From NCBI GenBank assembly GCA_049971295.1, contig JBMFLH010000047.1:1-14953 (forward strand): 14,953 nucleotides of DNA, in the 5' to 3' direction. This stretch comes from Candidatus Ratteibacteria bacterium (GTDB taxonomy: Bacteria; Ratteibacteria; UBA8468; B48-G9; DTJG01). Shown in pieces: positions 2,349-14,953 of this stretch. Positions within the stretch are counted from its first letter, which is position 1. The number at the start of each line of letters is the position of its first letter. The translations under genes and the position numbers were made by a program. The notes beneath the pieces are model-generated. The model did not search any database. It was not told where the DNA came from and saw only the letters and a program-made list of their open reading frames with translations.

Positions 2349-2924
2349 ATGAAAAACAAAAGAAAAACTATTATTGAAGCGGCTTCGAAAATTATTGGCA
2401 AAAAAGGCTATTCATTGACAACAGTTGATGAAATTACAGCAAAATCCGGCATTGGTAAAGGCACATTCTATATCTATTTCAAAAATAAGGACGATCTTTT
2501 CTATGCGATCATAGAAGAAAATTTTAATCAATTTCTTGTTGATGTAAAAACCACCATAGAAAAAATTGACGACTTTTTCGAAAAAATCAGAAAGGTGATT
2601 GAAATGTATCTTTCACATCATGAAAAGAATTATTTCTTGTTCAAAATCTTGATTCAGGAAAAACCGTCCATTAAGAAGGGTGAATTTATGAAATTTTGGA
2701 ATACGTTTTTTTCGAGGTGGGATTTTCTAAAAAAAGAAATTTCAGAACAGATTAAGGCAGGGACACTTCAAAATCTTGAATCTGATGATGTGATGTATTC
2801 ACTTCTTGGAATTTTGCACGGCAATATTCACAGGTGGTTGTTAAGTGGAAGAGAGTACTCCCTGGTAAAAAAAACCGACATCGTTTATCAAATGTTTGTA
2901 AATGGAATAAGGAACAGGAAATGA
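2349..2924 (+). CDS. TetR/AcrR family transcriptional regulator
   Basis: N-terminal IIEAA..I..KGY..TTVDEI...SGIGKGTFYIYFKNKDDL HTH signature; first gene of an efflux operon. Confidence 0.95.
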   Translation: MKNKRKTIIEAASKIIGKKGYSLTTVDEITAKSGIGKGTFYIYFKNKDDLFYAIIEENFNQFLVDVKTTIEKIDDFFEKIRKVIEMYLSHHEKNYFLFKILIQEKPSIKKGEFMKFWNTFFSRWDFLKKEISEQIKAGTLQNLESDDVMYSLLGILHGNIHRWLLSGREYSLVKKTDIVYQMFVNGIRNRK

Positions 2925-4216
2925 AAAAAATTATATTTTTGTTTTTGTTCATAACATCTTTGTTGTTTGCCGAAGAAATTCTTTCTCTTGAAGATAGCAT
3001 CAGAATTGCCATTGATAATAATCCTAAAATAAAAATTTCGCAGGCCAGAATCGACCAGGCATATTATCAAAAAGAGATCGCGAAAACGAATTTTTTGCCT
3101 AAGCTTAGTTCTTCTTTTAACTATACTTACCTTGGAAAAAATAGACCAATTAGTTTCAATCCACTTTTTCCATCATTCAAGGTCACTGATGATAATCTTT
3201 ACACCGTAAGTTTTAAAGTTACACAGCCAATTTTTACTGGATGGAAAATCGAAACAGCGTACCAGGTTGGAAAAGAATCATTTGAAAAAACAAAAATTGA
3301 TTATGAAACAGAAATTCAGAATCTTGTTCTTGATGTCAAAAAAGCATATTTCAATGTATTAAAGGCGCAGAGGCTTCTGGAGACAAGTTTAAGATACCGA
3401 GAATCGCTTCAGAACCATCTCAAAGACGCAAAAAGAATGTTTGAAATGGGACTTGTGACCAAACTTGACATTTTGAAGACAGAAGTGGCATTGAAGGATG
3501 CAGAAACCAAAATTACCGAAAGCGAAAATTTTCTGAATCTTGCAAAATCAAATTTCAATTTTGTGTTAAACAGGCCGGTTGACCATAATTTTATCATTCA
3601 GGACATGCTGGAACAGCAGGAAGTAGAAAATGATTATCAGTGGTGGTTAACAACCGCCATGAAACAAAGAAACGAAATAAAAAGTTTCGAAAAAGTTCTC
3701 TCAATCTACGATAAAAACATTAAAATTGAGAAGAGTAATCTATATCCGCAGATGTATTTTTTCTTCAATTATAACTTTGAAAAGGGAACTCAAACATCAA
3801 GAGAGGACTGGAACGATAATTGGAACACTGGTATTCTGTTATCTTACGACATATGGAACTGGGGTGAAACGCAGAATAAGATAAAAAAAGCCGAAAAAAG
3901 CAAGCAGGAAATTGAAAAACAATTTGAACTCGTAAAAAATTCTATTGAGATTGAAGTGAAAAATGCATACCTTAATTTCCTTTCCGCAAAGAAAAAAATC
4001 GAGCAGGCAAAAAAACAAATTGAATCCGCTGAAGAAAACCTGCGGGTTGCCAGGCTTTTATTCAATGAGGGAATGGCAACAACAACAGATGTGATTGATG
4101 CAAATACTGCATTAATTCAGGCAAACAACAATTTTTTTAATTATCTTTACGAGTATCAAATTTCCTGCGCAGAACTTGAAAAAGCAGCGGGTACATGGAC
4201 ATGGAGGAAGCAATGA
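2921..4216 (+). CDS. TolC family outer membrane efflux protein
   Basis: Signal peptide MKKIIFLFLFITSLLFA, then LSLEDSIRIAIDNNP and duplicated OEP helical repeats (FEMGLVTKLD / FNEGMATTTD). Start re-assigned to ATG 2921 (ATGA overlap with the tetR stop). Confidence 0.93.
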   Translation: MKKIIFLFLFITSLLFAEEILSLEDSIRIAIDNNPKIKISQARIDQAYYQKEIAKTNFLPKLSSSFNYTYLGKNRPISFNPLFPSFKVTDDNLYTVSFKVTQPIFTGWKIETAYQVGKESFEKTKIDYETEIQNLVLDVKKAYFNVLKAQRLLETSLRYRESLQNHLKDAKRMFEMGLVTKLDILKTEVALKDAETKITESENFLNLAKSNFNFVLNRPVDHNFIIQDMLEQQEVENDYQWWLTTAMKQRNEIKSFEKVLSIYDKNIKIEKSNLYPQMYFFFNYNFEKGTQTSREDWNDNWNTGILLSYDIWNWGETQNKIKKAEKSKQEIEKQFELVKNSIEIEVKNAYLNFLSAKKKIEQAKKQIESAEENLRVARLLFNEGMATTTDVIDANTALIQANNNFFNYLYEYQISCAELEKAAGTWTWRKQ

Positions 4217-5364
4217 GAAAAACCGTTACAGTAATTGTCATCGTGGTTCTTTTAATCTTTGGTTTTCGTCTGTATAAAAAAATTACAACAAAGGTGCCTC
4301 CAGGTATATCAGAAATTCAGAAACAAACTGGAGTACCTGTTGAAATTGCGGACGTAAAAAGTGAAACATTTACACAATCTATTACCCTTACAGGAGTGGT
4401 GGGAAGTGATGAGGAAGCAAACATTTCCACCAAAATTCCCGGCCGTGTTACAGGCGTTTATGCGGACGAAGGTATGGTTGTTAATCAAGGACAAATTCTT
4501 TTAACCATAGATGACCTGCAATTAAAAATACAAAAATCCCAGGTTCAAAACCAGATTGTTGTTGCCCAAACCAATGTTGATACAATCAAACTGCAACTCA
4601 ACGATGCTGAAAAGGACCTGAAAAGGATGGAACAATTATTTAAGGAAAATGCAATCTCACAAAAACAACTTGAGAATTATCAACTGAAACTTGATACATT
4701 GAAAAATAATTATGAATCAGCCATTAGGAACTTACAGGTTGTTAAAGACAATCTGAAACTTATTGAAACACAGATTGACGATTGTACAATCAGAGCACCA
4801 TTTTCCGGTATCATTGGAATTAAAAACGTGGATATAGGCGAAATCGTTACTTCCGGGCAGGTACTGATGACGCTATTTAATACAAATAAACTTAACGTAC
4901 AGATCAAGGTACCAGAAAATTATCTTCCCGAAATAAAAGTCGGACAGGATATCATTATTGAAATCGATGCAACAAATGGCAAGCAAATCATTGGAAAAGT
5001 TAAGAAAATTTCTGGTTCTCCTGATCCTAAAACAAGAATGTTTATTGTTTATGCTTCTTTACCAGGGAACCACAGAGATGCCAGACCTGGGATGTTTGTG
5101 CATGCAAAAATTATCATCAGGACAAAGCAAAATGCCATTGTTGTTCCCCAGCAAGCAATTTTGCAAGAAAACAATAAAACATTTGTCTACATTGTTGACG
5201 CAAACAAAGCAAAAAAAATTGAGGTTGTGACAGGGGATAGAACCGATGATACTATTGAAATTATTTCAGGTCTGAAACCAGGAGAAAAAATCATTACATC
5301 AAACCTCGAAAATCTTTCACAGGGAACAATAATCAAAATCACAGAAAGAGAGAGCAATCAATGA
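4213..5364 (+). CDS. RND efflux periplasmic adaptor (membrane fusion protein)
   Basis: N-terminal anchor, lipoyl halves (IPGRV...EG..V..GQ.L and IRAPFSGII), coiled-coil hairpin, RPGMFV, VVPQQAI, SGLKPGEKII. Start at ATG 4213 with SD GGAGG and ATGA overlap. Confidence 0.95.
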   Translation: MRKTVTVIVIVVLLIFGFRLYKKITTKVPPGISEIQKQTGVPVEIADVKSETFTQSITLTGVVGSDEEANISTKIPGRVTGVYADEGMVVNQGQILLTIDDLQLKIQKSQVQNQIVVAQTNVDTIKLQLNDAEKDLKRMEQLFKENAISQKQLENYQLKLDTLKNNYESAIRNLQVVKDNLKLIETQIDDCTIRAPFSGIIGIKNVDIGEIVTSGQVLMTLFNTNKLNVQIKVPENYLPEIKVGQDIIIEIDATNGKQIIGKVKKISGSPDPKTRMFIVYASLPGNHRDARPGMFVHAKIIIRTKQNAIVVPQQAILQENNKTFVYIVDANKAKKIEVVTGDRTDDTIEIISGLKPGEKIITSNLENLSQGTIIKITERESNQ

Positions 5365-8300
5365 ATCCTGTAAAACTTGCAATCAAAAGACCAGTACTTG
5401 TGATGGTAATGTTTATGATTGTGATGCTCCTTGGTTTTTTCTCTTTACCAAAACTAAAAGTTGATCTGACCCCAAAGGTAAACATTCCTGTTGTCACAGT
5501 AACAACTGTCTATCCTGGAGCAGGTCCTGACCAGGTTCAGACCCTTGTAACAAAACCAATTGAGGATGCTATCAGTACAACAAACAATTTAAAAAACATC
5601 AGGTCTGCTTCCATAGAAGGGGCTTCAATTATTATTGCGGAATTCAATATGGGGACATCTGTTGACATTGCAACAACAGATGTCAGAGAAAAAATCTCTG
5701 CGATACTCGGAGACCTTCCTGAAGATGTCAGGCAGCCAGAAATTCAAAAAGTGGATATTAACGCTATGCCTGTATTGTACTTAAGCATTTCTGGGGATAA
5801 CCTGAGAAACATATATGACATTGCGGACAATTACATAAAGCCAAAATTACAGTCAGTCAGTGGTGTTGGGAAAATTGAACTGGTTGGCGGAGAGAAACGA
5901 GAAATCAGAGTTGAGGCGTATCCTGAAAAATTGAGATACTATGGAATGGATTTGTCCGGGCTTGCGCAAAGGTTAAAACTTGAAAATGTCAATATCCCTT
6001 CAGGCCATTACCTTTTAGCAGAAAGAGAAATTTCAGGAAGGGTAAACACTGAGTTCAAAAATCCCGCAGAGATTCCTTTTCTCAATATTCCTGTTTTTGA
6101 TATGTCTACGGGAACAGTAAGAACAGTAAAATTGGATTCAATAGCAAGGGTATTAGACACTTCAGCAGAAATAAGAAACAAAACAAAAACAAACGGTAAA
6201 GAATCAGTTGGCTTAATTATACAAAAACAACCTGATGCAAATACAATAGAAGTCGTTGATAATGTAAAAAAGGTAATTCCTGATATTGAAAAAAACCTTC
6301 CAGCAGGGTCAAAAATTGCTGTTGTTGTTGATAATTCTGATTTTATCAGATCTTCTGTCAATGATGTGTGGCACAAACTTTTTATTGCGGTGATTCTAAC
6401 AGGTATAATACTGTTTGCCTTTCTATATAGCTTGGGTAGCACACTTATTGTATGTCTTGCAATTCCTGTTTCACTTGTTGGAACCTTGTTTTTTACCTAT
6501 ATTTCAAGGTTTACTCTGAACATTCTTTCGCTTTCAAGCTTGACACTTTCTGTTGGAATTGTTGTTGATAGTTCTATCGTCATTATTGAAAACATTTATC
6601 GCCATAGAAAAGAATTAAAAGAATCACCAGAAGTCGCGGCAGAGCAGGGCGCAATGGAAGTGTCGTCAGCCGTTACTGCAACCATGCTTACACATATGGT
6701 GGTATTTTTACCCATCGTTTTCATGTCAGGTCTTATAGGACAATTTTTTAAAGAATTTGGAATGATACAGGTTTATACATCTCTGCTTGCCCTTGCAGTT
6801 GGTTTTACATTAACGCCGATGCTGACGACAAAATTTTTGAAGGACGCAGGTGAAAAACCATGGGTAATAAAAGCAGAAAAACAATTTGAGGCTTTCAAAA
6901 ATGGGTACAGGCACGGATTGCAAAAATTTCTTAAAAAACCAAAGGCATTTCTAATCTTGATTACCATCCTCATACCGGTAAGTTTTATCTTGCTTCCCCT
7001 GATTGGTTTTGAAATGATTACAAAGACAGACGAAGGTATGTATCAGGTATCGGTACGACTTGCCCCGGGTACAAACCTTGCAAAAACAGAAAGCATCGTT
7101 AAACAGATAGAAAATAAAATTATGTCATATCCTGAAACCGAACAGGTCTTTTCAACGATTGGTAAAATTGTTGGTGGTACGATATCAATTGGCGCAGAAG
7201 GTCCAGAATACGCTCAGATTCAGGTAAAATTGAAAGAAAAAAGAAAGAAAAGCACACCTGAAATCATTGAAGAAATCAAACCATTTCTTGCAACAATCCC
7301 CGGGACAATTACAGTGTCGCAATATACATCAATGTCACGTGGTGGTAGTCCTTTGCAATTATATGTAACTGGGTCTGATGAAAATACAGTTACAAAAACA
7401 TCAGAACAGGTATTTCAATTAATTAAAGAAATACCTGGTATTTCCACAATTGATACATCATACCATCCAGGAAAACCGGAAATAAACTTTGTCGTCAAAA
7501 GAGACCAGCTTGCTGAAAATAATCTCAGCTCCAGTCAGGTTGCGACGATATGCAGGTCTGCCCTTGAAGGAATTGTTCCGACAAAGTTCAGATATAAAGA
7601 GAACGAATATGATATCAGGGTAACAATTCCTGAAGAAATGAAAAAAGACCATCAAATTCTTGAAAACCTACCTGTTGTCAACTCAATGCAAAATATGTTC
7701 GTTTTGAAACAGGTTGCAGAAATCAAAGAAACCACAGGTCCAACAATGAAAGAAAGATATAATAGAAGACCAAGTGTAACAATCCAGGGAGACGTAAATA
7801 AACCGCTGGGAACAGTGCTGACTTCAATAAAAAATAAAATCAAGAATGAAAAACTTCCTCCAGAAGTAAAAATCGTGATTGGCGGAGAAGGCGAAAGAAT
7901 GGCTGAGGCATTTAAAGATTTATTCCTTGCAATTTTGCTTTCAGTACTTCTTGTTTATCTCGTAATGGCTGCGCAGTTTGAAAGCTGGATAGAACCCTTT
8001 ATCATTATGGGGACATTGCCACTTTCAATCATAGGCATCCTCACAGGATTGTTTCTAACTGGAAAAACCATAAATATTTTCAGTTTAATGGGAGTGATTG
8101 TTCTGGTTGGAATTGTTGTAAGTAATGGCATCCTCATTATTAACTTTGCAAAAAATATGATTTTAAGTGGCAGGGACCCAGAAGAGTCAGTTATAGAGGC
8201 GAGTGCATCAAGATTGCGGCCAATTTTAATGACAACGCTTTCAATGGTTGGTGGAATGCTTCCCCTTGCACTTGCTGTGGGAAAAGGTTCAGTATTAAAA

Positions 8301-8411
8301 GCACCAATGGCAGTCAGTGTGATCAGCGGGCTATTGAGTTCAACGCTCCTGACTCTTTTCATCATCCCGCTTGCATACCTTTTTTATGTTAAAAAGGCAC
8401 ATAAAAAATGA
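5361..8411 (+). CDS. RND efflux transporter permease (AcrB/AcrD/AcrF family), 1016 aa
   Basis: IKRPV, YPGAGP..V...VTKPIE, GIVVDSSIVIIENI, AQFES...P, RLRPILMT, PMAVSVISGL; repeated hydrophobic TM pattern; ATGA overlap with the MFP gene. Confidence 0.96.
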   Translation: MNPVKLAIKRPVLVMVMFMIVMLLGFFSLPKLKVDLTPKVNIPVVTVTTVYPGAGPDQVQTLVTKPIEDAISTTNNLKNIRSASIEGASIIIAEFNMGTSVDIATTDVREKISAILGDLPEDVRQPEIQKVDINAMPVLYLSISGDNLRNIYDIADNYIKPKLQSVSGVGKIELVGGEKREIRVEAYPEKLRYYGMDLSGLAQRLKLENVNIPSGHYLLAEREISGRVNTEFKNPAEIPFLNIPVFDMSTGTVRTVKLDSIARVLDTSAEIRNKTKTNGKESVGLIIQKQPDANTIEVVDNVKKVIPDIEKNLPAGSKIAVVVDNSDFIRSSVNDVWHKLFIAVILTGIILFAFLYSLGSTLIVCLAIPVSLVGTLFFTYISRFTLNILSLSSLTLSVGIVVDSSIVIIENIYRHRKELKESPEVAAEQGAMEVSSAVTATMLTHMVVFLPIVFMSGLIGQFFKEFGMIQVYTSLLALAVGFTLTPMLTTKFLKDAGEKPWVIKAEKQFEAFKNGYRHGLQKFLKKPKAFLILITILIPVSFILLPLIGFEMITKTDEGMYQVSVRLAPGTNLAKTESIVKQIENKIMSYPETEQVFSTIGKIVGGTISIGAEGPEYAQIQVKLKEKRKKSTPEIIEEIKPFLATIPGTITVSQYTSMSRGGSPLQLYVTGSDENTVTKTSEQVFQLIKEIPGISTIDTSYHPGKPEINFVVKRDQLAENNLSSSQVATICRSALEGIVPTKFRYKENEYDIRVTIPEEMKKDHQILENLPVVNSMQNMFVLKQVAEIKETTGPTMKERYNRRPSVTIQGDVNKPLGTVLTSIKNKIKNEKLPPEVKIVIGGEGERMAEAFKDLFLAILLSVLLVYLVMAAQFESWIEPFIIMGTLPLSIIGILTGLFLTGKTINIFSLMGVIVLVGIVVSNGILIINFAKNMILSGRDPEESVIEASASRLRPILMTTLSMVGGMLPLALAVGKGSVLKAPMAVSVISGLLSSTLLTLFIIPLAYLFYVKKAHKK

Positions 8412-8482
8412 GCCCACGGGGAGATTCGAACTCCCGACCCGTCGCTTACGAAGCGACTGCTCTACCACTGAGCTACGAGGGC
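8411..8482 (-). tRNA. tRNA-Thr(CGT)
   Basis: GCCCTCGTAGCTCAGTGGTAGAGCAGTCGCTTCGTAAGCGACGGGTCGGGAGTTCGAATCTCCCCGTGGGCT folds as a cloverleaf. Anticodon arm GTCGC-TTCGTAA-GCGAC; T-loop TTCGAAT; CCA not encoded. Confidence 0.95.
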
Positions 8483-8490
8483 TTTATTTA

Positions 8491-8519
8491 ATTATACCTG
8501 AAAAATTCTATCCTTCCAA
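8491..8519 (-). promoter_or_regulatory. Probable promoter of tRNA-Thr
   Basis: On - strand: TTGGAA (8519-8514), 17 bp, TATAAT (8496-8491). Confidence 0.6.
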
Positions 8520-9650
8520 TGCTGGCTGGTCTTTGATATTCTTCAGTGCGTACCTTGCAGCATCGATAAGTTCGCTATATGGATAAAAGAGCACAATTTG
8601 CAAAAAACATTCCTTTGCCTTTCTTATCTCGCCCCTTTCAAGGTAAATTTTCCCAAGATTATAAAGGGCATTGTCAGCGAGTTTACTGAATGGATTTTTT
8701 CTGATGAATCTTTTGTACGCAATGATAGCCTCATCAATAAGACCATGCTGGGATAATATTTCAGCAAATTTATAGTCATAAAATGGCGGTATGGAAACAT
8801 CAGGATACTTCCTGATACATTCTCCAAAAAGAATGGCTGCTTCTCTTTCATCCTTATTTTGAATCAACTGTCCAATTTCTTTTTCCTTCTTGAATAGTTC
8901 GACCTGGTCATCAAAAGGTATCATCTTCATTGGGATTTCACCGACAATTCTTGAAAGAGCATTTTTCCCGGATGCAACATTGCGAATATACATTGCCTGC
9001 TGAAATATTTTTGTCAAAAGTCCGATAGCAATGCCTGCTAAAAATCCACCAACATGCGCTCCAAAAGCAACACCAGATACTGCTGTCACATTCGTATTAA
9101 CCAGCATCCCAACCAGTTGCTGAACAAACCATATTGATATCCAGAACCAGGCAAAAATATCAAAGGTTCCTGAGTAAACCCTGTAAAACGCGAAAATAGA
9201 ATACCAGAAAGTGATGTTACTACGCGGAAACAAAACCAGATACGCGCCGAGCACGCCTGAAATTGCACCAGATGCTCCGATAGACGGAACTGACCTCGCC
9301 TGGCCATAAGTAAAAGTCCCGTAAAAAACAGCTGCAATCACGCCCGAAAATAAATAAAATAAAAGGTACGGAAAATGTCCCCATCTATCTTCAATGTTGT
9401 CACCCATCAGGTACAGATACCACATGTTTCCGATCAGATGCATGATTCCTCCATGCAGAAACATTGATGTAAATATGGTCAACCAGGAAAATCTATCAGG
9501 AATAAAGCCAAATCTATTTACGATTTCCTGATAGGAACTACTCAATCCATACAGAAAAAACACGCAAACATTAATAAAAATAATAGTATAGTTAACTATT
9601 GGAAGTTTCTTTACTCCAAATTCATCACGGACAGGCCATAGAAAAAACAT
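8508..9650 (-). CDS. Rhomboid family intramembrane serine protease with C-terminal TPR domain
   Basis: FTSMFLHGGIMHLIGNMWYL, catalytic GASGAISG and AHVGGF; C-terminal TPR helices (ALYNLGKIY...AKECF..IV..YPYS). ATG 9650 is preferred over GTG 9653 on SD AGGAG spacing. Confidence 0.93.
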   Translation of the reverse strand: MFFLWPVRDEFGVKKLPIVNYTIIFINVCVFFLYGLSSSYQEIVNRFGFIPDRFSWLTIFTSMFLHGGIMHLIGNMWYLYLMGDNIEDRWGHFPYLLFYLFSGVIAAVFYGTFTYGQARSVPSIGASGAISGVLGAYLVLFPRSNITFWYSIFAFYRVYSGTFDIFAWFWISIWFVQQLVGMLVNTNVTAVSGVAFGAHVGGFLAGIAIGLLTKIFQQAMYIRNVASGKNALSRIVGEIPMKMIPFDDQVELFKKEKEIGQLIQNKDEREAAILFGECIRKYPDVSIPPFYDYKFAEILSQHGLIDEAIIAYKRFIRKNPFSKLADNALYNLGKIYLERGEIRKAKECFLQIVLFYPYSELIDAARYALKNIKDQPALEG

Positions 9651-9667
9651 CACATTCTCCTGTTTTC

Positions 9668-10618: not shown

Positions 10619-10945
10619 ATGAATAAAAAAATAAATTTAATGTCTGTAATTCTATTGCTTGCTTTTATTTTGGTTGGAGGATGTGGGAGAAAAGATACTG
10701 GAACAATAGAAGAAAAAGCAAAACAAACAGGTGCAAAAACATTGGAAAAGTTAAAAGCCACTGTACATCAGGATAATCTTCTGTACCTGAAAAATAAAAT
10801 CAATACCTATAAGAGGCAAAACGGAAAATATCCTGATTTACTTCAGCAACTGGTTAATGAAGGGTTTATTGACAAAATTCCTGACGCCCCCTCTGGTATG
10901 CAATATCAATATAACCCGTCAACAGGGCAATTGACCTTGAAATAG
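10619..10945 (+). CDS. Small predicted lipoprotein with a pseudopilin (GspG/ComGC-like) globular segment
   Basis: Signal peptide ends in LVGG-C22. C-terminal INTYKRQNGKYPDLLQQLV..GFI.KIP..P.G..YQY resembles pseudopilin heads. Confidence 0.65.
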   Translation: MNKKINLMSVILLLAFILVGGCGRKDTGTIEEKAKQTGAKTLEKLKATVHQDNLLYLKNKINTYKRQNGKYPDLLQQLVNEGFIDKIPDAPSGMQYQYNPSTGQLTLK

Positions 10946-10993: not shown

Positions 10994-11068
10994 CGGGGCG
11001 TAGCGCAGCTGGCTTAGCGCGCTTGGTTTGGGACCAAGAGGTCCCCAGTTCAAATCTGGGCGCCCCGA
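10994..11068 (+). tRNA. tRNA-Pro(TGG)
   Basis: Acceptor stem CGGGGCG/CGCCCCG with discriminator A; anticodon arm CTTGG-TTTGGGA-CCAAG; T arm CCCAG-TTCAAAT-CTGGG; CCA not encoded. Confidence 0.96.
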
Positions 11069-11079
11069 TATTCAAAAAT

Positions 11080-12708
11080 ATGAAAAAAAATCTTCTCGTG
11101 TATTTTCTCGTATATATTGGTCTATCATCCGCAAAATTATTTTCAGCAAGTATTGAAGTGCCAAACATTACAATACAAAACCCATCAACACAGCAAATCG
11201 TAGATGTAAACATCACCTGCTCTTCAGAAAAAATTTTTGTAGGATATCAGATAACTCTCCAGTATAACCCGCAAATCTTAAAACTTATTGATGTTACAAA
11301 AGGTCCTCTGGTTGGTTCGTTTACTGTGTTGGTAAATATAAATACCCCTGGCATAATCAGAATTGCAGGATTTCATCCAATGCTTTCTGGAACTTCAGGA
11401 AGTGGAATTCTTTCAATTTTACGTTTTCAAATTCTGCAGCAGGGAAATTCAAATCTGATTCTTTCTTCTGTGAAACTATCTGACCCCTCAGGTCAGACAA
11501 TACCATGCTCTGTTGGATCCGGCAGCATTAAAGCTGGCGAAACGCTACAGAAACCAGAAAAATCACAGGAAACAACGCCAAAACCTGATTCTTCACCTGA
11601 TAAAACACCAACTGCACAAAAATCGCAGACCACAATCATTCCTGGTCAAGAAATAAAGCCATTTGTTCCAAAACCCATTGAAACCCCATGGCCAGAGGCA
11701 CAAAATCTTGATATTGATACCTTTCTTGCAATGCAAGAATCAATGGACCACATTGAAACCCACAAAGAACAACCGCAAACAAGGCCATCAAACAGTGTGA
11801 CTCTTCTTGTTTTTTCTGACTTTGGAAATCCTGTACCACCTGCTGGTATTACCACGTTTGTGAAAGGCGAAAAAGTTAACTGTAGCGTTGAATCAGAAGT
11901 CCTTGTCAGTGATACTGAAAAGGTCGTGTGTACGGGATGCGAAGGAAAGGGTTCTGCCTACAACACGAAGAACAACAGTATTTCCTTTGTTATTGATAAG
12001 GACTCGAAAATTATCTGGAAATGGAAAAAAGTCCCAGTAGAACCTGGCTTTTTAATAGACACACCCTCTGAAATAAATTTTGAATTTTCAAAAAAAGAAG
12101 TTTCCATCCCGGTAAAAGTTAGATTTCTGGGCGGACTTACTGACACAATATTTTTGGAAACAGCCAGCAAATTTGACATAACATTTTCTGACACATGTTT
12201 AACCCCTGAGAAAAAAGAGACTTCGGCCGTCATCAAAATACACGACAATTTTTCAGCAGGGAAATATTCAATATCAATTTATGGAAAAACAAAGGACAAA
12301 AAATTACAAGCAGAAAAATCCATCACCGTCATGGTGCCTGTATTTGCCTTTTTTGGAGAAGTAAGTTCAAACGAAACGGATAAATTGATTATGATTCCTG
12401 TTATGCTTAATGGCAATGTAAAAAACATTTCAAGTTTTGAAATTATTATGGAAGCACCGGAAGAGGTCAAATTTGTTAGAATTGAATCTATGCCTGGAAT
12501 AAAGATTATGAACGGTTTTGTTCAAAAAGGAAAATATTTGAAAATCAGTGGCGGACTCATACCCCCAGTAGATATAAAAGACAGAAAACTTTTCAGTGTT
12601 ATTCTATCATATTCAAAAACACCTGCGGAAAATCAGTTTAAACCTGTTCGTGTTTTTTTATGGGACCAGCACGGTGAAAAAATACCGACCCAAACACAGA
12701 TAAAATGA
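11080..12708 (+). CDS. Secreted cohesin-domain protein (cohesin - P/T/Q linker - small beta domain - Ig-like - probable second cohesin), 542 aa
   Basis: True start is ATG 11080 (the track's 10987 start runs through the tRNA). Signal peptide, then a cohesin pattern VDVNI......GYQITLQYNPQILKLIDVTKG...GIIRIAG.....GSGILSILRFQI......LILSSVKLSDPSG. C-terminal IPVML....ISSFEI....EVKF.......G.LKISG......LFSV.L.Y....V.LWDQHGEKIP. Confidence 0.8.
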   Translation: MKKNLLVYFLVYIGLSSAKLFSASIEVPNITIQNPSTQQIVDVNITCSSEKIFVGYQITLQYNPQILKLIDVTKGPLVGSFTVLVNINTPGIIRIAGFHPMLSGTSGSGILSILRFQILQQGNSNLILSSVKLSDPSGQTIPCSVGSGSIKAGETLQKPEKSQETTPKPDSSPDKTPTAQKSQTTIIPGQEIKPFVPKPIETPWPEAQNLDIDTFLAMQESMDHIETHKEQPQTRPSNSVTLLVFSDFGNPVPPAGITTFVKGEKVNCSVESEVLVSDTEKVVCTGCEGKGSAYNTKNNSISFVIDKDSKIIWKWKKVPVEPGFLIDTPSEINFEFSKKEVSIPVKVRFLGGLTDTIFLETASKFDITFSDTCLTPEKKETSAVIKIHDNFSAGKYSISIYGKTKDKKLQAEKSITVMVPVFAFFGEVSSNETDKLIMIPVMLNGNVKNISSFEIIMEAPEEVKFVRIESMPGIKIMNGFVQKGKYLKISGGLIPPVDIKDRKLFSVILSYSKTPAENQFKPVRVFLWDQHGEKIPTQTQIK

Positions 12709-14672
12709 GACAGATATTTTTTAAAAATTTTTTCTGCACAGCGTTTTTCATTTTGTTGCTCTTCACCGCATATGCAACCTGCCAGGCAAAATGGACAGTG
12801 ATGATATACCTCGATGGAGATAATAATCTTGAAAAGTACGCAATCAATGATTTTCTTGAAATATCTTCAGTTGGTTCAACGTCAGAAGTAAATTTTGTTG
12901 TCCAGTTTGACAGGATTGCAGGTTATGACACAAGATATGGAAACTGGACAAATACCCAGAGATTTAGAATAAGCAAAGATATGGAACCAACAATTGATAA
13001 CGCAATTTCTGATTGGGGCGATGGATTTGGTGGGCGAGAAACAAATTCTGGAGACCCTGAAACGCTCTCTTCATTTATAAGATGGGCAAAACAAAATTAT
13101 TCAGCAGAGCATTATGCTTTAATTCTTTGGGACCATGGAGATGGATGGAAAACATTGAATGATGTTGCAGAAAATATCCAACTGCAACTAAAACAACCCG
13201 AACTTTCCCATCAAGAAAAAATTTCTCTTGAAAAAACGCTCAAGGAATTGAAAAGAAAAATTCATTCCAGACGATATCAGAAAAGTATGTGTTTTGATTA
13301 TACCTCATCAGATGAACTCACTCTGAAAGAAATAAGACAGGCTCTTTCTTCTGAAAATTGTAATGTTGACATCATTGGATTTGATGCCTGTCTTATGGGA
13401 ATGGTAGAAATAGCATATGAAGTAAGAAATTTCGCAGCCTATATGGTCAGCTCTGAAGAAACAATCATGGTAACAGGCTTCCCTTATGATTCAATTGCCC
13501 AGGATATTGTTAATAACCCTGCAATTACACCTGAAGAATTTGCAAGACGTATTGTCCAGCATTACACTGATTTTTACGGTCACTATAGCACAGAAACATT
13601 AGCAGCGATAAACCTTTCCTTAATGAGCCAGATTTATGAGGCAATAAACTCGTTGTGCACATCTGCGATAGAACTTGATAATCAATGGATTTACTTTTAT
13701 ATCGCCCTTTCAAAAACCCCGCATTTTGATGACCAGGATTATAAAGATTTGAAAACTTTCATTGAGGAGATCACTTTTAATGCATCAGACCAGACGATTG
13801 TAAATGAAGCAAACCACATTATCAATATCCTTAATGACGCAATCATAGAAAATTTTGGTGGCACAGCAGGAAAAGGACTGTCAATTTATTTCCCTGATAA
13901 AACAGCAGGAATTTCACCAGAGTATAACCCAGAAAATCTTGAATTTGCCAGTGGAACGTGGAAAAGTTTCCTTGAAAAATTTTCAACTGCAAATATATCA
14001 AACGGGTTTACAGCTTTATTGCTGGAAACATTTGACTCAGGCATACCGACAAACTGGACAATTGTTGACGGAAATAATGATAACAAAACCTGGATGACTA
14101 CAAATCCAAAAAATAGAGTAATTTCAAATCTTGATAGCCCCTTTGCGATTGTTGATAGCGATTGGGCTGGTAGAGTGCGGATGAATGAACAGTTGATTAC
14201 AAAAACCATCAGTATCGATGGCTCAAAAAGAATATTTCTTGCGTTTGACCATTATCTCAAATCATATGGTACAGAAATTGCTGATGTGGATATAAAGGTT
14301 GATTCAGGCGAGTGGCAGAATCTCGTAAGGTACCAGTATCAGGATGTTAGTGGTCTTTTAATTTTTCCACTCAATCCCTATATCAATAAAACAGGTAGCA
14401 CGCAAATACAAATCAGGTGGAACTATCAAAATGCATATGATGCATATTACTGGGCTATTGACAACATTCGTATTCTACAGGAATCAGGGATACCCAAAAA
14501 AGGCGACTTAACAGGAGATGGCACGATTGATATTTCCGATGTAATACTATGCCTTCGTATGGCGATAGCACTTGACCCAATGAATGTTGAATTTGCGAAT
14601 ATGAATGATGACCAAGTTGTTGATATCTTAGATGTAATACTGATTTTGAGAAAGGCAATAGGACTTGATTAA
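12705..14672 (+). CDS. Secreted clostripain-family (peptidase C11) cysteine protease with a beta-sandwich adhesin/MAM-like domain and a C-terminal dockerin
   Basis: KWTVMIYLDGDNNLE, LILWDHGDGW (catalytic His, codon 13134), DIIGFDACLMG (catalytic Cys, codon 13389), SEE, GLSIYFP. Then ETFDSGIPTNWTIVDGNND domain, and a duplicated Ca-loop/helix GDLTGDGTIDISDVILCLR / ANMNDDQVVDILDVILILR. ATGA overlap with the upstream gene. Confidence 0.92.
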   Translation: MRQIFFKNFFCTAFFILLLFTAYATCQAKWTVMIYLDGDNNLEKYAINDFLEISSVGSTSEVNFVVQFDRIAGYDTRYGNWTNTQRFRISKDMEPTIDNAISDWGDGFGGRETNSGDPETLSSFIRWAKQNYSAEHYALILWDHGDGWKTLNDVAENIQLQLKQPELSHQEKISLEKTLKELKRKIHSRRYQKSMCFDYTSSDELTLKEIRQALSSENCNVDIIGFDACLMGMVEIAYEVRNFAAYMVSSEETIMVTGFPYDSIAQDIVNNPAITPEEFARRIVQHYTDFYGHYSTETLAAINLSLMSQIYEAINSLCTSAIELDNQWIYFYIALSKTPHFDDQDYKDLKTFIEEITFNASDQTIVNEANHIINILNDAIIENFGGTAGKGLSIYFPDKTAGISPEYNPENLEFASGTWKSFLEKFSTANISNGFTALLLETFDSGIPTNWTIVDGNNDNKTWMTTNPKNRVISNLDSPFAIVDSDWAGRVRMNEQLITKTISIDGSKRIFLAFDHYLKSYGTEIADVDIKVDSGEWQNLVRYQYQDVSGLLIFPLNPYINKTGSTQIQIRWNYQNAYDAYYWAIDNIRILQESGIPKKGDLTGDGTIDISDVILCLRMAIALDPMNVEFANMNDDQVVDILDVILILRKAIGLD

Positions 14673-14748
14673 AATTTTAATTAAAAAGCGTAATTATTTA
14701 GAAAATTTAAAGAGGGCAGACATACTAAAAAGTTAAAAGGGGAAAAGC

Positions 14749-14953
14749 GTGAGATACTTAGAAAAATTAAAAACTTTATATGTGTGTATTTTTTTGTTCG
14801 GTGTCTCTTCTTTTGCAGTGACAGTTTCAATCCCGAATACTAATGCCAATCCAGGGACTGCGACTGTTGAAATTCCGATTAATATTGATAATGCAACTGG
14901 TGTTGCAGGATTTCAATTTACAGTAACTTTTGATAACACCATTTTGAATGCAA
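14749..14953 (+). CDS. Secreted cohesin-domain protein, 5' part only (runs off the right edge)
   Basis: GTG at 14749 after SD AAGGGG. Translation MRYLEKLKTLYVCIFLFGVSSFA-VTVSIPNTNANPGTATVEIPINIDNATGVAGFQFTVTFDNTILNA is a signal peptide plus a typical cohesin N-terminus. Not in the ORF track. Confidence 0.85.
   Translation, partial: MRYLEKLKTLYVCIFLFGVSSFAVTVSIPNTNANPGTATVEIPINIDNATGVAGFQFTVTFDNTILNA

Follow-up and report, generated by a model that had tools for sequence, protein, structure and literature searches.

Cohesin–dockerin complexes that carry peptidases are already an idea in print, because the planctosome of the Nemodlikiaceae (Planctomycetes) has been put forward as a proposed model of such an assembly (PMC6461901). 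The stretch of DNA described here (the window, which is the complete contig C47 of 14,953 nt) belongs to an assembly of Candidatus Ratteibacteria (G000; 1.89 Mb, 127 contigs, 92% complete) and ends in three genes on the same strand, which encode a secreted cohesin protein (P0001), a C11 cysteine peptidase with a C-terminal dockerin (P0002), and the beginning of a further cohesin protein (gene 3), the probable anchor of the system. We read these genes as the likely core of a modular envelope system that displays peptidases together with adhesin-like proteins, rather than cellulases, on the Ratteibacteria cell surface, and consider the chances of this reading to be about even. The features on which the description relies are the following:

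11080..12708, + strand: P0001, 542 aa, secreted; signal peptide, cohesin, linker, two β-domains, and cohesin-like C-terminal domain
11146..11535, + strand: type I-like cohesin of P0001, residues 23-152, from Pfam and fold matches
12340..12705, + strand: degenerate cohesin-like β-sandwich of P0001, residues 421-542, from a profile match
12705..14672, + strand: P0002, 655 aa; signal peptide, C11 cysteine peptidase, cleaved-adhesin-like β-domain, and C-terminal dockerin
13134..13136, + strand: catalytic His144 (D-H-G motif) of P0002, from alignment with clostripain 9cip_A
13389..13391, + strand: catalytic Cys229 (F-D-A-C motif) of P0002, from the same alignment
14496..14669, + strand: dockerin of P0002, last 58 residues, with two 12-residue Ca-loop repeats
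14749..14953, + strand: gene 3, first 68 codons, with a GTG start; encodes a signal peptide and the beginning of a cohesin before the contig runs out

As far as the planctosome is set out in the passages of the proposal considered here, both systems occur in diderm bacteria of the PVC side and combine a cohesin anchor with dockerin-borne peptidases, including M14, and no cellulases. The planctosome anchor is built with a lamin-tail and a P-domain, whereas four orthologues of the anchor described here lack both and carry CFI-box-CTERM and a barrel instead. The planctosome includes an adaptor composed of a cohesin and a dockerin (Coh-Doc), which is present here in relatives, although not found in G000; its endopeptidase is M12B, whereas the core enzyme here is C11, most of the cargo is non-catalytic, and three HExxH proteins have no family assignment. 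The systems known from ANME archaea and from syntrophic sulfate reducers are likewise non-cellulosomal, have variable cargo, and are read as serving attachment or adhesion, but in ANME a chain can hold up to 5 cohesins, with S-layer–dockerin proteins and ABC binding proteins for cargo, and the main-text passages on both groups contain no CFI-box or barrel anchor (PMC9012536, PMC10553843). The type I cellulosome of Clostridium thermocellum and its kin shares with the present system the cohesin fold, a symmetric dockerin with duplicated Ca-loops, and adaptor scaffoldins. It differs by its many-cohesin scaffoldin, its CBM/CBM3 modules (none in Pfam scans of the cohesin proteins here), its SLH or sortase anchor (the orthologues here match CFI-box-CTERM), and its cellulase cargo.

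The cohesin of P0001 matches Pfam Cohesin over residues 39-150 with 37.4 bits (cut-off 24.1), and its structure model superimposes on the type I cohesin 6kgc_A with Z of 19.0 and rmsd of 1.9 Å over 132/144 residues. It is followed by a disordered linker (residues 155-236) and two β-domains. The last domain (421-542) has no Pfam match and aligns with the cohesin alignment at an hhalign probability of 60% (E 8.4e-5). In the whole-protein model (pLDDT 77.6), the cohesin dyad 3l8q_B aligns 244 residues, spanning 21-540. P0001 carries neither an anchor nor a dockerin. The preliminary description had proposed that the β-sandwiches are cohesins, as the scores and the fold now confirm, and that P0001 is a scaffold, which stands for one Pfam-grade cohesin but for the second domain by profile only. 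A scaffold with many cohesins is not supported, as no chain in the 103 fetched loci has more than 2 cohesins that score. The 18 relatives of P0001 that were found cover 64-100% of its length, and the named ones carry the labels Omnitrophica, Ratteibacteria or 'bacterium'; one database, according to the part of a preprint consulted, files Ratteibacteria genomes under Omnitrophica (10.1101/2023.11.21.568195). Among 14 loci of relatives, 12 have the orthologue of P0001 at a distance of at most two genes from the gene for C11.

The genes of P0001 and P0002 overlap in the ATGA at 12705-12708, and the reported order of three same-strand genes for a cohesin, a C11–dockerin protein and a cohesin is confirmed. 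P0002 matches Peptidase_C11 with 193.7 bits (cut-off 25.8), and the motifs of His144 and Cys229 are kept in 16/16 dockerin-bearing C11 relatives. With only 89.6 bits against the cut-off of 550 for the clostripain equivalog TIGR02806, it belongs to the clostripain family but is not clostripain itself. The two repeats of its dockerin are identical to each other at 11 of 22 positions, and such internal symmetry is given, in the passage cited, as a feature of dual-binding dockerins (PMC8063739). The assignment of this module as a dockerin, also made previously, holds by type I dockerin profiles but not by the Pfam threshold: taken alone it reaches 20.2 bits with Dockerin_1, below the cut-off of 22.9, and the whole of P0002 gives no Pfam dockerin match. 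All 27 members of its family, on the other hand, match PF00404 at E<=0.1 (best 1.3e-9), and the family profile places type I dockerins on top of the PDB matches (best E 1.4e-7). The Ca-loops and recognition positions are kept among 37 dockerin modules (I13 in 36, R21 in all 37, I44 in 36, and R52 in 32). A model that combines the cohesin of P0001, the dockerin of P0002 and 2 Ca ions has a score of 0.25 (mark 0.32) and, standing without folded controls, speaks neither for nor against the pairing.

The search of the phylum returned 65 genomes, all of one class; these kin are not independent, and many of the assemblies are incomplete. Dockerins occur in 32 of them (1 to 18 matches each) and cohesins in 25, all 25 being among the 32, with no cohesin match in any of the 33 dockerin-negative genomes. 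This strict nesting argues against the view that the modules are not partners, the dockerin tail being a stand-alone tag for Ca2+ binding or secretion and the cohesins generic β-sandwich spacers. The Coh-Doc adaptors of relatives, which are ~225 aa long and have nothing else on the chain, and the conserved surface-type cohesin positions Q57 (31/38), N86 (33/38) and D135 (30/38) argue in the same direction. Such independence of the modules would account for the score of the window dockerin below the Pfam cut-off, for the 7 of 32 dockerin-positive genomes with no cohesin match, and for the internal position of the dockerin in 13 of 128 unique open reading frames (ORFs), some of them cut by the locus end, but we regard it as very improbable. 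In several proteins of 1,700-3,450 aa an internal dockerin is followed by ~950 further residues (L073, L078, L080, L082, L085, L087, L100).

The third gene had been taken for another cohesin protein, and its fragment indeed matches Pfam Cohesin with 31 bits, although only 68 codons lie inside the window. Its mature part is identical at 42/46 residues to a protein of 1299 aa in genome G002 and at 40/46 to one of 1266 aa in G009, both encoded directly after the C11 gene. A short Coh-Doc adaptor was rejected as its identity, with 24-26 identities against 40-42 for the anchors. The anchors of G002 and G009 start with a signal peptide and a cohesin, followed by Ig-like and InlB-B-like spacers, choice-of-anchor U, CFI-box-CTERM, and a barrel. 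In four anchor orthologues CFI-box-CTERM (NF041770) scores 95-101 bits (cut-off 40); choice-of-anchor U scores 44-45 bits (cut-off 32), and the barrel part weakly matches the TraB barrel (NF033763, E 1.5e-8; 27-33 bits against a cut-off of 700). Contig C109 of G000 opens inside a frame that matches anchor residues 471-1298 at 66% and is 71-76% identical to three anchor orthologues across the CFI-box and the barrel, from which we infer that it carries the C-terminal 806 codons of gene 3 (L046:2-2422). A minimal form, with a cohesin and CFI-box but no barrel, lies between the P0001-type and C11 genes in G029. On these sequence grounds gene 3 is the probable anchor of the system.

Several further genes adjoin the cluster in relatives. 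By reading, a gene for a ShlB/FhaC-like outer-membrane transporter closely follows the anchor gene in G016 and G020 (L032:3897-6168; L063:1-972), and in G016 an OmpH-like gene is positioned between the anchor gene and the transporter-like gene. In family f3, a gene for a PPIase/SurA-like foldase is inserted between the C11 and P0001-like genes (L031:6282-7178, L032, L041).

The region from the CFI-box to the barrel is modelled with five helices, then a linker of low confidence, then 12 strands. The CFI-box itself forms a helical bundle, after which come a transmembrane segment and basic residues. The best Foldseek folds for the barrel are FapF (E 1.0e-10) and the COG4313 channel Pput2725 (E 1.5e-10), whereas the search by sequence against the PDB gave weak VDAC matches only (E 0.02). 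A language model places it next to Myxococcota proteins of the 'MotB family' and to PF13557 (0.96), the latter being present on several homologues and absent on the G000 copy. The junction was compared in 17 loci with both CFI-box and barrel, taken from barrel-match rows and earlier loci. The two parts are encoded in one ORF in 13 of them and in two overlapping genes in the other four (G001, G004, G010, G011). In all 13 fused forms the transmembrane segment and the basic residues are followed, directly before the barrel, by a second hydrophobic segment that resembles a signal peptide and ends in Ala (12) or Gly (1), and in 4/4 split loci the barrel gene has a signal peptide of its own. Four fused forms have a purine-rich run and ATG at the junction, and an internal start of the barrel is therefore also possible there. 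The junction codon is ATC in G000 but, in the same context, ATG in G005, and the near-identical P0065 likewise has Ile; thus the barrel of G000 can come only from the fused chain. We infer from these sequence features that the anchor is split into two products by signal peptidase I at the internal segment. The intervening transmembrane segment, basic residues and signal-like segment, together with the lack of a Pfam Autotransporter match, exclude a type Va autotransporter. A precedent for such a split is fbcH, the fused cytochrome b-c1 gene of Bradyrhizobium, which the literature search did not meet; for bacterial polyproteins split by signal peptidase, only viral and eukaryotic papers were among the matches listed.

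The host has a diderm envelope, as had been concluded from its TolC and LPS-type genes, since the window contains a TolC-type gene (OEP, 243 bits) and a GT9 gene by Pfam scan, and the genome encodes three signal peptidases I and three secretins besides BamA. In the mechanism that we propose, every part would be exported through the inner membrane by Sec. Gene 3 would be made as a single chain and cut by signal peptidase I, yielding a cohesin–Ig stalk with a CFI-box-CTERM end and a separate 12-stranded barrel, which BamA would insert into the outer membrane. The stalk would reach the surface via type II secretion, in the manner of MYXO-CTERM, or with the help of its own barrel, and would remain paired with it, as TraA with TraB. 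One specificity class of dockerin cargo would then dock on the stalk in a Ca2+-dependent way; the Coh-Doc adaptors of relatives would lengthen the stalk, and P0001 would be a soluble carrier with one or two sites. By analogy, the C11 protease, the most constant cargo, may trim or mature surface proteins, besides or in place of scavenging protein.

Two described systems serve as guides for these steps. According to the passages cited, the MYXO-CTERM tag of Myxococcus TraA is cleaved, and the protein is routed by type II secretion and predicted on the TraB barrel (PMC11980579, PMC12045341). Like TraA–TraB as described there, the anchor combines a stalk protein, with a Cys-containing C-terminal membrane tag, and a related barrel beside it. 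It differs in its tag (CFI-box-CTERM, with no MYXO-CTERM match), its cohesin head, its barrel without TSP3 or OmpA, the frequent fusion in one ORF, and the fact that no myxosortase-family protease was found in G000. In Pseudomonas, the part of the Fap work considered here reports that FapD, a periplasmic cysteine peptidase, is needed for export through FapF (PMC5557850); there too a 12-stranded, COG4313-like barrel is encoded beside a Sec-exported cysteine peptidase. Unlike that account of Fap, the peptidase here belongs to C11 instead of C39 and bears a dockerin, the barrel directly follows a signal-like segment, and the passengers are folded Ig and cohesin domains. We can speculate that gene 3 represents a new display route, a polyprotein split into a CFI-box cohesin stalk and its own FapF-like channel that exports or holds the stalk, with the C11 protease as a maturation enzyme like FapD and the dockerin as a phylum-wide sorting tag able to replace CFI-box-CTERM; this extended version is tentative and, in our estimate, somewhat unlikely.

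The helical bundle of the CFI-box, with its transmembrane segment and basic residues, is also consistent with a periplasmic assembly, in which CFI-box-CTERM would remain uncleaved in the inner membrane, the complex would be periplasmic, and the barrel would be an uptake channel for small molecules. COG4313 channels are described as importers in the passages cited (PMC5557850), the PPIase/SurA-like gene lies within the cluster in G016, G018 and G020, and no CPBP-family sortase candidate was found in G000. Cargo lengths of 3,400-4,540 residues, with propellers of the RCC1, Kelch, FG-GAP and NHL types set on Ig stalks, argue against this location, such architectures being typical of surface proteins. 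So do the two other CFI-box genes of G000, which adjoin two genes for GspC-like PDZ proteins (T2SSC 25.9 bits, below the cut-off of 27). On this evidence we judge a periplasmic complex unlikely. The region of C9 in question (L051:3266-19975) combines these two pairs of genes, for CFI-box-CTERM and GspC-like PDZ proteins, with a pilin-like gene and one for an Ig-repeat protein of 1,636 aa.

The cargo was described from the 103 fetched loci, which are part of 210 dockerin matches and biased towards C11, the query used; they contain 128 unique dockerin ORFs in 43 clusters. Catalytic cores were recognised in 35 of the 126 dockerin-bearing bodies long enough to compare, 30 of them peptidases. The 35 comprise 16 C11, 6 M14, 3 S8, 2 C14, 3 HExxH without family assignment, 3 weakly GH127-like (E 0.022), and 2 PHP cores. 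By cluster, 6 are peptidases, 2 other enzymes, and 2 adaptors, and ~33 have no recognised enzyme, some of these being fragments. The non-enzyme cargo consists of RCC1, Kelch, FG-GAP, NHL and PQQ propellers, β-helices and Ig stalks, in proteins of up to 4,540 aa. A database census, based on the best 120 of 261 matches, of which 34 were excluded for low score, non-terminal position or another motif, gave at least 86 dockerin-tagged proteins in 19 families; its 25 representatives include S8, M14, M23 (the M23–dockerin protein P0239) and a weak C45-like match. No glycoside hydrolase was found above cut-off among the 25 + 36 cargo representatives or in the cargo of G000, and the 12 window proteins scanned contain no glycoside hydrolase family match, as stated previously. 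An ordinary cellulosome is thereby ruled out, in agreement with the expectation that the cargo is not mostly glycoside hydrolases. In G005, an ORF for a GH73 glucosaminidase overlaps a dockerin ORF in another frame (L028:7676-8910), possibly a frameshifted peptidoglycan hydrolase cargo.

These numbers bear on the 'protease-some' of the preliminary description, that is, a nutritional assembly in which endo- and exopeptidases gathered at the surface would digest extracellular protein or dead cells, with the non-catalytic cargo as substrate-binding modules. The share of peptidases among the recognised cores, the M23 and weak C45-like additions from the census, the GH73 gene overlapping a dockerin ORF in G005, and the presence of M14 also in the passages on the planctosome (PMC6461901) agree with it. 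The C11 query, however, inflates the C11 count, peptidases make up only 6/43 of the cargo by cluster, one or two cohesins per chain leave little scope for enzyme synergy, and G000 keeps only two intact peptidase cargos. The peptidase part of the name thus stands, but it describes only part of the system, because most cargo clusters show no enzyme and are adhesin-like; as an explanation of the whole, a digestive function has in our view a low probability.

G000 itself has eight whole dockerins and one half. Still intact are P0002 and an M14 carboxypeptidase (205.5 bits), along with two non-catalytic proteins of small size and one Ig-rich protein that runs off its contig. Decayed dockerin genes with frameshifts or truncations are present at L003, L004:8731-9960, L005:384-851 and L052:4217-4366, one of them adjoined by a tRNA-like sequence (by reading), and cargo turnover seems to be fast. 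The terminal tag on homologous bodies differs between genomes, a dockerin in one being replaced by a CFI-box in another, as in P0223 (dockerin) and a CFI-box protein of G000 (32.5% over 538 columns, E 5e-55) or P0211 and P0093 (51% over 268), which indicates that the dockerin is an anchoring tag. The best reading of these sequence pairs is that dockerin and CFI-box-CTERM would be interchangeable anchors.

Several points weigh against the surface display proposed above. The search profiles were built from these same relatives, which as kin are not independent, and seven dockerin-positive genomes have no cohesin match. In G000 the Coh-Doc adaptor was not found and 4 of 9 dockerin loci are remnants. 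The join of C47 and C109 is inferred only from orthologues, because a stretch of ~390 residues is absent and the two contigs share no sequence at their ends; no exact overlap of 16-25 bases links either of them with any other contig. The barrel is not specific to the cohesin system, as it occurs in at least 22 dockerin-positive and at least 8 dockerin-negative genomes (hand count over the best 150 of 189 rows). In 6 of the 17 junction loci the ORF ahead of the barrel has no cohesin though uncut by a contig end. Similar fusions of CFI-box and barrel without a cohesin also occur both within this phylum and among proteins that carry the label Thermodesulfobacteriota or Caldiserica. This distribution suggests that the barrel generally partners a single CFI-box protein in each genome, and that the cohesin was grafted onto that protein. 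No CPBP/myxosortase-type protease was found in the 92% complete G000, and the rhomboid protein encoded near the cluster was rejected as a rhombosortase (20 bits, cut-off 84). The side of the outer membrane that the stalk would reach is placed by analogy. Outside the phylum, P0086-P0092 and P0098 are CFI-box–barrel fusions with other heads, one labelled Thermodesulfobacteriota and one, with a cohesin-like start, Caldiserica.

The cluster is preceded in the window by a tRNA gene:

10994..11068, + strand: tRNA-Pro(TGG), found by ARAGORN, ending 11 bases 5' of the first start codon of P0001

A start of P0001 at 10987 was rejected because that frame passes through the tRNA; a similar read-through extension is found ahead of the P0001 orthologue in G002, G005 and G009, and tRNA-Pro and P0001 may be co-transcribed. 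Scans for promoters and terminators were at chance level (17 against 15.2 +/- 4.5, and 3 against 2.7). Directly upstream of the tRNA, a putative lipoprotein of 108 aa (10619-10945, + strand) matches T2SSG weakly (16.9 bits against a cut-off of 21). The rhomboid protein mentioned above is a fusion of a rhomboid protease with TPR repeats (8508-9653, - strand); the position of its gene two genes upstream of the cluster is kept in several genomes of the same genus, synteny that was seen within the genus only, and it is a possible CFI-box processing enzyme. The remaining features of the window are tRNA-Thr (8410-8482, - strand), an efflux operon with TetR, TolC, MFP and AcrB-type genes (2349-8411, + strand), a chorismate synthase of 475 aa with an apparent internal insertion relative to the 327-position Pfam model (820-2247, + strand), and a transposase-like HTH fragment (HTH_32, HTH_23; 229-696, - strand).

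A literature search, with supplements and most subscription journals outside its scope, found no description of this Ratteibacteria system or of a cohesin anchor coupled to a barrel; similar anchors might be listed in the ANME S4 Data, the S10 Table on sulfate reducers or the planctosome supplementary figures. For Ratteibacteria together with dockerins it returned only preprints on Omnitrophota giant proteins; it met no paper describing CFI-box-CTERM, and 'CFI' is absent from the preprint on sorting signals (10.1101/2023.06.07.544157). What is apparently new is the anchor, a probable polyprotein split by signal peptidase and provided with its own barrel.

The system offers a concrete candidate for the way in which cohesin scaffolds are tethered in diderms that lack SLH or sortase anchors, the planctosome anchor being only a proposal, and this candidate is known in fused, split and barrel-less forms within one phylum. 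The orphan CFI-box-CTERM domain gains a testable substrate and a partner barrel. Engineered surface display in Gram-negative bacteria could make use of such a native cohesin anchor of the outer membrane, with a dockerin specificity of its own. In an uncultured phylum with scant literature, about half of the genomes appear to devote genes to peptidases and adhesin-like proteins that clip onto the cell surface.

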